Origin: Nitrosopumilus sp.
GTDB taxonomy: Archaea > Thermoproteota > Nitrososphaeria > Nitrososphaerales > Nitrosopumilaceae
Direction of reading: 5' to 3'
NCBI GenBank assembly: GCA_965205675.1
Contig: OZ242186.1
Location: forward strand, 576,001-640,000
DNA: 64,000 bases
Shown here: positions 38,931 through 42,446 of the stretch, in pieces
How the letters are laid out: each line of letters starts with the position of its first letter
How positions within the stretch are numbered: the first letter of the stretch is position 1
Made by a program: the position numbers and the translations under genes
The notes under the pieces: generated by a model
Seen by the model: the letters and a program-made list of their open reading frames with translations, nothing else
Database searches by the model: none
What the model was told of the DNA's origin: nothing

Positions 38931-39536
38931 TCAAATTTTAAGATATCCTACTTTTGAAATTTTATTATTGATATTTCTTTGTAATACCACTCGTTCGTTT
39001 GTTTTTCTTCCTCCAAGCAATCTCTCGTTTACGTTTTCCATGAATTCATTAATCTGTTTAAAACAATTACCTATTTCTTTTCTTAATTCCTCATCAGAAC
39101 TATTTTCTTTTGTCCATAAAATTGAAGATGCCACTTCAAACATCCCTGTCATATTTGTTAGTAATAATCCATAATCTTTTTTTGCAAGTTTATTAAATTT
39201 ATGTGAATTAAGATCTTTTGATATATCTGAAAATATTTTTTTATTTTCTAAATTTTTTAATGATTGATTTATTTTAGATTCGTATGTAAAAATTATATTA
39301 TTTACAAATCCTATATTTTCTTCTGTAGAAAAATGATAATATTTTACATAATATGCATCATTTTTATATCCATGTTTTTCCACATGTCCTAACATTTCCA
39401 TTTTTTTTAATATTTCTTTTAGTTTTGAACGATTGAATCTCTTTTTGTTATTCAAACATTTTTTCCAAATGTCTCCAAAATAGTTTTTATCCTCATTCAT
39501 ACATTCTAAAATATAATTAATTGAAATTGTTTGCAT
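38931..39536 (-). CDS. hypothetical protein, possible N-terminal winged helix
   Basis: Very AT-rich 201-aa ORF with NRSKLKEILKKMEMLGHVEK. Confidence 0.6.
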   Translation of the reverse strand: MQTISINYILECMNEDKNYFGDIWKKCLNNKKRFNRSKLKEILKKMEMLGHVEKHGYKNDAYYVKYYHFSTEENIGFVNNIIFTYESKINQSLKNLENKKIFSDISKDLNSHKFNKLAKKDYGLLLTNMTGMFEVASSILWTKENSSDEELRKEIGNCFKQINEFMENVNERLLGGRKTNERVVLQRNINNKISKVGYLKI

Positions 39537-39811
39537 ATGTTTTCATTTATGGGGGAATTATTTATTGATGGTGACTCTATTTTTGAGGCTAATTTACACT
39601 CTTATCTGTTCATACTCAAAAACTGCCAAGTTTTGGGTATTTTGTAGATGCTTATTTTCTGCAAATGTAATGACTATTTCTAATATCATTTTCAATTAGA
39701 TTGTACTTTTTCATGAGGAAGAATTAGATGAAGAGGGATTGCGCAGATGTTTTGACAAGTTCACACCTAAGACTTGAATTGATTCAACAGGAATATGACT
39801 ATAATTATCCA

Positions 39812-40009
39812 TGTGAATTGTTTTTATACATTTCCTCTCTTTCTATACATCAGGGCATGGCTTTCGCTAGAGAATGGTTTCAATCAAAAGATGGCAGACA
39901 TGTATCCATACGAGACTATTCTCTCAATGCTATCTTCATCCTAGTTAGGATTGTTCGCAGTTATTAGACGAGGCCTTGTCCCTCAATAATTACAACGCGA
40001 CTTGCAGTC
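39812..40009 (-). ncRNA. candidate bridge/seek RNA of the IS110 element
   Basis: About 200 nt non-coding with two stem-loops; contains matches to the target flank (9 nt) and element end (7 nt). Confidence 0.6.
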
Positions 40010-41125
40010 CTAACTATAATTTTGTACAAATTCTCTCCTCTCCTTTAACATCCAATAAATCACCCTCAGGATCTTTGATGCACCAGCTACTGCAGCTTTG
40101 GATGATCCTCTTTTCTTTTTAATGCGATTGTAAAATTTTGTAATGTCACTATCCTTGGCATGAATTGCATGAGTGTGTATGCATTCTGTTAGAACCCATC
40201 TCAATGTCATGCTTCCCCTTTTTGTTATTCTGCCATGGTGTATTGTATCTGCAGAGTTTCTAACTGATGGTACAACTCCTGCATATGCACACAGTTTGTG
40301 AGAATCATTGAATCTCTCAATATCTGCAATCTCTGATGCAATGACAAGCGAAGAATAATGCCCAATTCCCGGAATCGAGTTTATCAAAATTGCATCAGGA
40401 TTAACTTTTACAGCAGCATACACTTTGGAATTAATCTCTGCAATCTGTAAATTAAGGTGGCTGATTTGTTGCAAGAATCCGTCTATTCTGTAATCTCCTA
40501 GTGCCTTGAGTCTTCTGTTGTATGTTTCAGTGAATGTAACTCCTGGAATCCTGATTCCTTCCTGTAACAATATTCCATGAACTGAATTCTTGACAGATGT
40601 TCTCCATTGGATTAGTTTTTTCCTATATCTTACAAGCTGTCTTTGTTGTACAATCTTTTTGTCTGGAACATAACATGTGGCAATGTATCCTCCTCGTAAA
40701 AGATCTGCCAATATCTTGGCATCAATCTTGTCTGTTTTCTTTTTTGATGTAGCAATTGCCTTTGTCAAATATGGGTTTGAGAGTGTGACGTTTTTGTATC
40801 CCAAAGTATCTGTGAGAAATCGATACGTGTCATACCAGACTGATGAGGATTCCATTACAATATTTGCAGAAATTGGTATTTTTGCAAAATGCTTCCTGAT
40901 AGATTCATGAGTGTTATCCACTTTGTCATTTTGTAATACTTTGCCTGCATCATCCATTATTGCTACTTGAAGAAACTTCTTGTGCAGGTCAATGCCCACA
41001 AACATGCCTTTCTTTGGTTTCTTCCTAATCTGTTTGTTTGTAATCTTTTTTGGAGCCGAGTATTTACGAACCTTGGAACTAGATTCATTTTTTATGCTAT
41101 CTGATTTCCTTGCTTTCTTATTCAC
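40010..41125 (-). CDS. IS110-family DEDD recombinase
   Basis: GIDLH (D), VMES (E), KTDKIDA (DD), SIPGIG and AYAGVVPSVRNS (catalytic S). Confidence 0.95.
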   Translation of the reverse strand: MNKKARKSDSIKNESSSKVRKYSAPKKITNKQIRKKPKKGMFVGIDLHKKFLQVAIMDDAGKVLQNDKVDNTHESIRKHFAKIPISANIVMESSSVWYDTYRFLTDTLGYKNVTLSNPYLTKAIATSKKKTDKIDAKILADLLRGGYIATCYVPDKKIVQQRQLVRYRKKLIQWRTSVKNSVHGILLQEGIRIPGVTFTETYNRRLKALGDYRIDGFLQQISHLNLQIAEINSKVYAAVKVNPDAILINSIPGIGHYSSLVIASEIADIERFNDSHKLCAYAGVVPSVRNSADTIHHGRITKRGSMTLRWVLTECIHTHAIHAKDSDITKFYNRIKKKRGSSKAAVAGASKILRVIYWMLKERREFVQNYS

Positions 41126-41285
41126 ATATAGTTATTCATATATAATTACAGCAAAATGCCAGCAACGATGATATCTGTTCATATTTAACAAAATCTCAAA
41201 GGACGTAACTTTTTTTCAAATTACATCTGATTTTATATCGTATATTGTGCTTGAAAAATTTCAGAAAAAAAAATCTTGATATTTT

Positions 41286-42446
41286 CTAATTTTTGCTTAT
41301 TTTGATATGTACTTTTTCACCTTTGTTTGAATTATTTTGATAAACTGTTCTGGTTTTGTATCCTTGTCTTTGAAGACATCCATCTAAAACTGATACCCAT
41401 GGTAATGAATGTCCACTGTTAAGTTTTGATTCTATTGTGATGTTTTTGGTATTTGCCTCAAAATTTACATGTCCTGAACACATAATTTGCATTACTGCAT
41501 CCATTATCTCAATTACGTCGTCTAGTGTTTTTGTTTTTAGATATATCCCATTTTTTTCTAATAATTTGAACATATCTGCTTCAGATTTTTTTGATATCAT
41601 TGCAGAATTTAGCAGATATGTTAGTCCTGACTCATTAACTATTTTAATAATTTTATAAATTTCCTGGGCTTCTGTCTTTGTCATATCTGCAAGTGCTTTT
41701 GTTTTTATTGCATTTTTCCAAATGTTTGCAAATATCTTTTCTTGATTTATTCCTAAAATCTCAGTTGATGAAAATATTGCCCCTTTTCCATTATCGCTGT
41801 TTACCATTAGTAATTCTGTTTCATCAAATATGAAACAGTTTTGTGTAATCTCTGATGCTCTAATTTCTGCTCTGTCTGGAATTGCTCTATATGATTCAGA
41901 ACAAATCTGTGATGGCAAAACAATGATTTTAACATCTAGATTACGACGTAATACTGATGCTAGTTGTTCTCTGCATTCTGCTAACAATCCAAATCCCCAT
42001 TGATCCGCCATAATTCTGATTGATGTTTTTGATCCTTCAATCATTGTTTGAAGTTGAGTTAATACATTATTTGCACTCAAATGGAAATATCTTTTTTCTT
42101 CAGATCCTCTTGTTCTCCTACTTTCTTCACTTGCCTTTTTTAAATTAGAAATTAGTGTATTCATTGCATTTACTTTGTTAATTTGTTCATGAATAATTCC
42201 ATCAAAAGCATCTTCTGGAGCAATTGCAGTACACATGATTGGCTTGCTTTTAGATATGATGACTAGTTTTTTATTTTCTAATTTTAGCAAGGTTGGATAG
42301 ATTTTTGTTCTAGGAATTTCTGAATAATATGCTAATTCACTAGCTGAAATTGTCCCTTTTGCAATTAGGGCCACGTATGCACGTGCTTCATATTTACTTA
42401 ATCCAAATTCTTCTAGACTAACTGTTAAAATATGTTCATTTACCAT
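41286..42446 (-). CDS. TrmB family transcriptional regulator
   Basis: FGLSKYEARAY..SEIPRTKIY. Confidence 0.9.
   Translation of the reverse strand: MVNEHILTVSLEEFGLSKYEARAYVALIAKGTISASELAYYSEIPRTKIYPTLLKLENKKLVIISKSKPIMCTAIAPEDAFDGIIHEQINKVNAMNTLISNLKKASEESRRTRGSEEKRYFHLSANNVLTQLQTMIEGSKTSIRIMADQWGFGLLAECREQLASVLRRNLDVKIIVLPSQICSESYRAIPDRAEIRASEITQNCFIFDETELLMVNSDNGKGAIFSSTEILGINQEKIFANIWKNAIKTKALADMTKTEAQEIYKIIKIVNESGLTYLLNSAMISKKSEADMFKLLEKNGIYLKTKTLDDVIEIMDAVMQIMCSGHVNFEANTKNITIESKLNSGHSLPWVSVLDGCLQRQGYKTRTVYQNNSNKGEKVHIKISKN

Follow-up and report, generated by a model that had tools for sequence, protein, structure and literature searches.

Does an archaeal insertion sequence (IS) of the IS110 family encode a guide RNA of its own, and can the target and the element ends that such an RNA would read be recognised in the genome that carries it? 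RNA-guided recombination by IS110/IS1111 elements was shown in bacteria, and 662 archaeal homologues of these elements have been counted (bioRxiv 10.1101/2024.06.21.599552). The question was raised by a 64,000-nt stretch of the Nitrosopumilus sp. assembly GCA_965205675.1 (contig OZ242186.1, positions 576,001 to 640,000 of the forward strand), referred to here as the window. A preliminary description of this DNA had proposed a complete RNA-guided recombinase in an ammonia-oxidising archaeon. The host genome is one contig of 2.01 Mb with 33.7% G+C, and it encodes an archaeal AmoA (386 bits), so that the host is an ammonia-oxidising archaeon, as proposed. We conclude that positions 39802-41136 are, with high probability, an IS110-family insertion sequence of the IS1111 type with a predicted two-loop target/donor guide RNA encoded 3' of the gene. 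The element, of ~1.33 kb, is called IS-A. Unless stated otherwise, coordinates are those of the window, and the features of IS-A are read on the minus strand.

The transposase gene is an open reading frame (ORF) of 371 amino acids (aa) at 40010-41125. It starts with GTG inside the left subterminal repeat; counted from Met41, the product has 331 aa. The protein contains the N-terminal DEDD/RuvC-like domain PF01548 (E 3.9e-25) and the C-terminal domain PF02371 (E 1.8e-21), both above the curated cut-offs. The NCBIfam model NF033542, 'IS110 family RNA-guided transposase', scored 228.8 bits against a cut-off of 140. A search of the sequences of solved structures returned ISCro4 (9t56, E 4.8e-12) and IS621 (8wt6, E 2.9e-9). 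Residues D46, E92, D132, D135 and S291 were aligned with the catalytic positions of IS621/ISCro4. With its full-length ORF, both Pfam domains and the aligned catalytic residues, the DEDD+Ser recombinase is intact, as had been described. The word 'complete' holds for the window copy; an intact ORF was found in only two of the ten IS-A copies, this one and c2 (genome 1108047-1109381). A basic N-terminal extension of ~40 aa precedes the DEDD domain; its frame is open in 26 of the 28 distinct homologue N-termini compared, distant ones included. The motif around the catalytic Ser, G-V-V-P-S-V-R-N-S-A, has the spacing of GL-P----S(T)G with A instead of G as the last residue. This GL-P----S(T)G motif and a transposase of 330-350 aa are among the features expected of the IS1111 group (PMC11187229). 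The closest plasmid-borne relative of the transposase is a haloarchaeal IS110-family gene with 35.8% identity. Downstream of the ORF lie 201 nt of non-coding DNA (39809-40009), close to the ~200 nt first reported, and the distance from the left tip to the GTG codon is 6-10 nt.

The ends of IS-A were determined from its other copies. A blastn search of the genome gave ten full-length copies with 98.3-100% identity, plus many fragments, and the alignment of the ten junctions defined the block common to all of them, 39802-41136. The uninterrupted target, TGTAATTATTGG on the plus strand of the window, was found at three empty sites (genome 1994465, 1159204 and 1629596). Because these empty sites elsewhere in the genome could be compared with filled ones, the ends and the target of IS-A are fixed: the element proper consists of 39809-41131 and one copy of ATAA. 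The ATAA stands at both junctions (39805-39808 and 41132-41135), and the outermost positions of the block, 39802-39804 and 41136, are conserved target bases. In the orientation of the ORF, the target reads (TCT/TCC)AA-T-AATTACA(A), with TCTAA-T-AATTACAA-like sites; the left tip is AACTATATGTGAA and the right tip is TTCACATGGA. Insertion is site-specific and proceeds without a conventional target duplication, as the tips and the target share an identity of 4 nt (ATAA) only. Across relatives, a single T is the only base that is always common to both junctions. A dinucleotide core was also tried on the junctions of the relatives; neither AT nor TA suited all of them, the lone T being shared in every case.

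Two subterminal inverted repeats of 7 bp are set in from the tips, within the 7-17 bp of the IS1111 group. The left one, ATGTGAA (41121-41127), contains the GTG start codon (41123-41125) and belongs to a motif, AAC(Y)ATATGTG, that is conserved in homologues. The right one, TTCACAT (39811-39817), is likewise conserved; GGA, the shared T and then the flank come after it. On this anatomy, that is, the subterminal repeats and the long non-coding region 3' of the gene, we assign IS-A to the IS1111 type. The window copy occupies a poorer site, TGAATAATTATAG. Its right flank (39797-39804), the half of the target that would be paired by the guide, has TTATAG where most copies have TTACAA. These changes, C to T and A to G, are shared with copy c9 and could still be paired as G.T and U.G wobbles.

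The fixed ends altered several details of the preliminary description. It had taken 41142-41150 as flank plus junction, given the identity of this segment to a sequence in the first RNA loop. The identity is real; the ORF-proximal end, placed by copy comparison and empty sites, is at 41131-41136, so that the match lies 6-14 nt out in the flank, is inverted relative to the real targets and is absent from the other nine copies. The reported marking of both junctions by TATAATTA is true of the window copy and fails in the other copies. A second flank match, ATAGTC, is rejected, as it involves the private flank of the window copy and a variable hairpin loop. The circle junction had been predicted wrongly, with a right end over-extended by about 11 nt; the spacing of 10 nt between the short inverted repeats in the predicted circle remained correct when counted from the fixed ends. 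The true ends, given by the empty sites and the copy alignment, do include the RNA region. As a separate observation, a 9-nt sequence close to the target but inverted (ATAATTACA on the plus strand) lies in the flank at 41137-41150, 6 nt from the element. With 101 occurrences on the two strands of the genome, this 9-mer is uncommon; no other copy of IS-A has it.

The non-coding region has a conserved fold. Seventy-seven related loci, which carry Nitrosopumilus, Nitrosopumilaceae and Cenarchaeum titles, were collected, and 19 mutually diverged representatives (ratio <0.94) were aligned; locus L058 was excluded for an insertion in the non-coding part. Five stems were backed by RNAalifold and by a separate count of pairs, and they form two stem/internal-loop/stem modules within the 201-nt region. 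Module 1, the predicted target-binding stem-loop (39944-40014), is enclosed by P0 (40009-40014 with 39944-39949), which includes the stop codon and has three compensatory pairs; it further contains P1 (39996-40000 with 39955-39959; one compensatory pair) and the invariant P2 (39981-39984 with 39970-39973). Module 2, the predicted donor-binding stem-loop (39896-39941), is built from P3 (39937-39941 with 39896-39900; GC/GU changes only) and the P4 hairpin (39922-39926 with 39911-39915; three compensatory pairs). In the 25 stem pairs, 99.2% of the cells were paired, versus 32-47% when the 3' partners were slid by 1-3 columns. Compensatory changes were seen at seven pairs, versus none or one after sliding, and the observed values were reached by none of 500 shuffles. 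G.U pairs make up about a fifth of the paired cells (for example, at columns 25-67, 91-138, 92-134 and 104-123). On the opposite strand these would be A.C, and therefore the fold belongs to the ORF strand. This agrees in part with the stem-loops described before. The outer CGCG/GCG and inner GAGG/CCTC stems of stem-loop 1 are real and conserved as P1 and P2. The stem AGAGAAT/ATTCTCT proposed for stem-loop 2 is not conserved (68% of cells paired, with 82 of 500 shuffles as good).

Further conserved elements follow the two modules. Directly after module 2 stands CAUCUUUUG (39885-39893), which is nearly invariant in the alignment and may be the oligo-U end of the predicted RNA. A small hairpin with a GAAA loop, UAGCGAAAGCCA (39858-39869; RNAalifold pairs 178-185 and 179-184), is conserved as well. 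The predicted guide RNA would be ~125 nt long and lie on the strand of the ORF; the strand follows from the G.U pairs and its existence as RNA is our inference. A covariance model of the two modules found 29 places in the genome, namely ten of IS-A, nine of a sibling called IS-B, four of another called IS-C, and six fragments. Within the family, 19 of the 151 genomes sampled gave matches, spread over 8 of 27 genera, a patchy distribution that fits a mobile element. In G019, a more distant genus, the same build was found with more compensatory changes, including GGGG/CCCC in P2 and GUUAAAGC/GCUUUAAC in P0.

How module 1 would recognise the target can be read from its internal loop of 11 + 11 nt, which is flanked by P1 and P2. 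The 5' side of the loop, the T strand (UUGUAAUUAUU, 39985-39995), includes the loop sequence TGTAATTAT (39986-39994) that had been picked out earlier. Together with the next G (UUGUAAUUAUUG, 39984-39995), the T strand is complementary to 12 consecutive nucleotides of the target top strand in ORF orientation, which cover the crossover and the right flank. Counting both strands, the genome contains the complementary 12-mer 19 times, ten of these being the guide DNA itself, and it is expected in a given 200-nt stretch about once in 1000. The 3' side, the B strand (GUCUAAUAAC, 39960-39969), corresponds to the other DNA strand: UCUAA equals the left flank (5 of 5 in copy c3), U equals the shared T, and AAC equals the first bases of the left end.

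Both strands change together with the flanks of the elements that carry them. For this comparison, 80 element ends were parsed from the 77 external loci and 15 places in the own genome; a locus was used only if both its right end and its module-1 pattern could be recognised. With 27 distinct T strands, the longest exact run against the right flank was 6.48 nt for the own flank and 3.74 nt for the flanks of others, a difference reached in 0 of 20000 permutations. In the case of 16 distinct variable parts of the B strand, the contiguous match from the junction into the left flank was 2.89 versus 0.42, again with 0 of 20000 permutations. Conservation along the RNA is also lowest in these two loop strands, where the majority fraction is 0.68 (T) and 0.60 (B) compared with 0.87-0.99 elsewhere, in the stems and the strands of module 2. 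The covariation of both loop strands with the flanks across Nitrosopumilaceae elements supports a reading of the target by the predicted module 1. The relation was partly reproduced in G019, a second genus that had been kept out of model building: two of its four guide classes matched their own flanks at 8.2 and 8.0, compared with at most 5.3 for the flanks of other classes.

The siblings in the same genome behave in the same manner, since IS-B and IS-C have different loop sequences and correspondingly different targets. IS-B (~1.33 kb; genome 928664-929997, locus L007, with eight further right-end junctions) has the loop strands UUUUCACAUU and AAACUAUAAC. Its insertions lie in the left repeat of IS-A (eight junctions), of IS-C (one junction) and of itself, at ...AACTA-TA-TGTGAATAA. 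The loop strands of IS-C are UUAAACAUAUU and UUUUGUAAC, and this element is found at G-TA-T(A/G)TGTTT sites, with a looser fit. Some observations on the siblings are added here. The insertions of IS-B are always located between the tip and the GTG start codon, and its loop strands match the site. IS-B nested in itself was seen with tips at genome 566150, 63636 and 1407697, and its transposase gene is frameshifted in all copies. The element in locus L072 (2505-2726) combines an IS-B-type target module with an IS-C-type donor module and right end, as though entire modules had been exchanged between elements.

A natural specificity test for the predicted IS-A guide is provided by the ends of another mobile element. 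Copies c2, c4 and c10 lie in a repeat of ~80 nt that forms the end of an IS1595-family element, the ORF next to it matching PF12762 (E 1.1e-34). This end (genome 1994465-1995360, locus L128 207-1061) has about 12 similar counterparts. In the 12 ends that include the target region, the exact 12-nt motif was occupied in three of four cases and its variants in none of eight (Fisher one-sided 0.018).

Module 2 is related to the ends of the element. P3 and P4 flank a second internal loop of ~10 + 10 nt. In its 3' strand (UAUGGAUACA, 39901-39910), AUGGAUA (39903-39909) repeats, in this order, the final four bases of the right end, an A, the T common to both junctions, and the A with which the left end begins. 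The earlier report of ATGGATA both in the RNA region and at the element end (39806-39812) is therefore accurate. The right end varies between G and A, and the RNA follows it. In the 19 representatives, 14 had G in both, four had A in both, one had a gap, and none was discordant; the A-A state was found in the L045 group and the IS-C group. The 5' strand (AAGAUAGCAU, 39927-39936) contains AUAG, which is complementary to CTAT of the left end. Elements with ACTAT ends have AUAG in this strand and those with ACCAT ends have AUGG(U)(U), and the complementarity extends over 4 nt in IS-A, 5 nt in IS-B and IS-C, and 6 nt in G019.

The central claims of the preliminary description hold because of five kinds of evidence: the copies, the empty sites, the covariation of the structure, the covariation of guide and flank, and the G/A covariation of the donor loop. 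Its interpretation, an IS110/IS1111-type element with a two-loop guide at the 3' side in which loop 1 reads the target and loop 2 the element end, is supported by the copies, empty sites and covariation, and its observations are partly confirmed. The loop had been chosen correctly, and the flank match on which the choice relied (41142-41150) was wrong. If the region is transcribed, as we infer, the guide RNA would be bound by the DEDD+Ser recombinase, as suggested by homology with IS621 and the IS1111 seekRNA elements. It would then bring the junction of the excised circle and the target together for strand exchange, the circle and the catalysis being predicted steps. The 5' loop strand of module 2 would pair over 4-6 nt with the left end's top strand.

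Whether module 2 pairs with the ends or serves as a scaffold is the point on which the main mechanistic rival differs. According to it, only module 1 guides, as a seeker RNA of ~70 nt (40014-39944), the transposase recognises the ends through the subterminal repeats, and module 2 is a protein-binding scaffold. The seekRNA paper (PMC11187229) describes short RNAs of 82-96 nt with target matches only and suggests that end recognition may differ in IS1111 elements. In addition, the ends are nearly invariant across relatives, so that covariation of the donor loop rests on two variable positions, and the 5' donor strand pairs over 4-6 nt only. Against this stand the G/A change of the right end, which the RNA follows in no fewer than two separate lineages (the L045 and IS-C groups) with no discordant case among 18, and the build of module 2, which has the same stem/loop/stem order as module 1. 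The 3' strand of module 2 also stops at the same place relative to the crossover as that of module 1, with the end bases, U and A. We regard a guide limited to module 1 as unlikely.

Much less probable is a guide consisting of the element's own single-stranded DNA, as in IS200/IS605, where subterminal DNA pairs with the cleavage site. The guide evidence for IS-A, like everything presented here, is DNA sequence, and G.T pairs form in DNA too. The protein, however, is an IS110-family DEDD recombinase, a family with which RNA guides co-purify and which requires them (PMC11208160, PMC11187229), and the guide segments of IS-A are located 150-190 nt inside the end, not at it. The least probable alternative, to which we give hardly any weight, is that the matches between loop and flank are chance in AT-rich DNA and that the protein alone picks the target. 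A genome of such low G+C content, the shortness of the motifs and a single-sequence fold that is not significant would all suit it. It is already contradicted by the permutation results for both strands with their partial replication in another genus, by sibling elements in which changed loops go with changed targets, and by the rarity expected of the 12-mer; the empty sites argue against mis-set ends.

Several results weigh against the RNA-guided, two-loop reading and should be considered together. The first concerns the kind of evidence just named, all of it DNA sequence. The thermodynamic fold of the single sequence was not better than that of shuffled sequences (z = 0.54; 140 of 200 folded as well), and Rfam 15 gave no match in 39802-40014, even at E up to 10, though it may hold no model of this RNA branch. 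The evidence for the structure is comparative for these two reasons. The expected agreement of insertion flanks with loop sequence in other copies and homologues was obtained for the 27 and 16 variants as a whole, and failed in 5 of the 27 T classes, which matched their own flanks no better than those of others (ranks 6 to 26). Among the remaining guide classes of G019, class b scored 5.0 versus 4.5 and one class had no match, and a one-base difference in the G019 guides was not significantly associated with C/G in the flank (Fisher 0.10). Diverged IS-A fragments in the same genome, which were kept out of the covariation tests, gave mixed fits of guide and flank (one good, two at 5/6, three poor). 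The register of the T strand relative to the crossover shifts by 0-2 nt among relatives, and the exact core is not fixable. The 5' strand of module 2 gives a short match with one covarying position and few independent events, which makes its case weak. The site at genome 1787400 (plus strand), which fits both guide strands of IS-A perfectly over 14 nt, is unoccupied, as are 46 other sites with the 10-mer AATAATTACA. Finally, 8 of the 10 copies have a split ORF: a 2-bp deletion and two substitutions common to them at codons 55-56 (the place of window 40959-40963) break it after the first catalytic Asp. With all this taken into account, an IS1111-type element with a two-loop guide remains the reading that we consider highly probable.

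The predicted excision circle of IS-A would join the right tip, ending CACATGGA, through one T to the left tip, starting AACTATATGTG. In the assembled contigs of four sets of DNA runs, no joint, empty site or circle junction was seen; loose contig ends at 39802-39805 simply repeated the flanks of other copies. The joint would have a consequence for expression of the gene. The GTG start is located 8 nt from the left tip, inside the left repeat, and therefore no promoter fits inside the element upstream of it. Near the right end, an outward-facing A/T box was found (TATAAAAA, 39821-39828; TTTAAAAA-like in relatives), and such an A/T-rich box is present in all 19 representatives. In a circle or a tandem copy it would stand 22 nt upstream of the GTG codon, roughly as far as an archaeal TATA box stands from the start of transcription. 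We take it as a candidate for such a TATA box in a junction promoter. In some archaea, mRNAs are commonly leaderless, and GUG starts occur among them (PMC4983044). The spacing would give a leaderless transposase mRNA that is made only after excision. Tentatively, one may go further and suppose that this lineage rebuilt the junction promoter in archaeal style and at the same time diversified its guides, as seen in at least 27 T variants, the apparent module swap in L072 and the aiming of IS-B at the start-codon repeat of its relatives; we hold this joint idea to be possible rather than probable.

The distribution of the copies shows traces of rearrangement. The flanks of copies c6 (genome 440466) and c7 (genome 927338) are the same for 70 nt or more on either side, a sign of segmental duplication. 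Copy c10 (genome 997775-999107) has a c2-type flank on one side and a c6-type flank on the other, a combination that recombination between copies would be expected to produce. In the window, IS-A is located between two minus-strand ORFs of 201 aa (38931-39536) and 386 aa (41286-42446).

IS-A and its relatives are a series of guides that was reprogrammed in nature, in mesophilic marine archaea, and whose targets can be read. Both parts are small, a predicted RNA of ~125 nt and a protein of 331-371 aa. Such a series is useful for learning which positions of the loops matter, and as a new source of recombinases. The element also explains a part of the repeat load and of the rearrangements in these genomes. 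The general picture of the mechanism of the family is unchanged by it. In our literature searches, we found no paper that resolves the guide RNA, target and ends of an archaeal element; the supplements of the 2024 papers (PMC11208160, PMC11187229), which were outside the search, may list archaeal predictions.

Comparison with known systems places IS-A nearest to the IS1111 branch, to judge from its anatomy. IS4321 and IS5075, which belong to the IS1111 family, reportedly insert into the terminal repeats of Tn21-type transposons. IS-A and IS-B similarly aim at the ends of other mobile elements, IS-A at the IS1595-family end in three copies and IS-B at the repeat of IS-A, IS-C and IS-B, although the hosts, targets and sequences are different, and in the case of IS-A and IS-B the aiming can be read from the loop strands. 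With the IS1111 seekRNA elements ISEc11, ISPa11 and ISKpn4, as presented in PMC11187229, IS-A shares the DEDD transposase, the subterminal inverted repeats, the non-coding region 3' of the gene, and insertion into repeats, including the ends of other mobile elements. In that group, the RNA-coding part follows downstream of the gene, and within the RNA the top-strand match, which is complementary to the target's top strand, stands 5' of the bottom-strand one and overlaps it at the crossover (PMC11187229); both loops of IS-A follow this arrangement. Bridge RNAs were also predicted in the right end of 93% of the IS1111 entries of ISfinder (PMC11208160). Unlike the seekRNA elements, IS-A has an archaeal host, a basic extension of ~40 aa that begins at the GTG in the left repeat, and S-A instead of S/T-G in the motif of the catalytic Ser. 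The likeness to IS621 and ISCro4 (PMC11208160; 8wt6, 9t56) consists of a two-loop RNA with one loop strand for each DNA strand in target or donor, and of the aligned positions of the catalytic D, E, D, D and S. In contrast to these two elements, the predicted RNA of IS-A is encoded at the opposite end with the order of the loop strands reversed, the similarity of the proteins is low (E 4.8e-12 and 2.9e-9), the shared core is T (ATAA) and not CT, and the guide for the right flank is long, at 8-12 nt.

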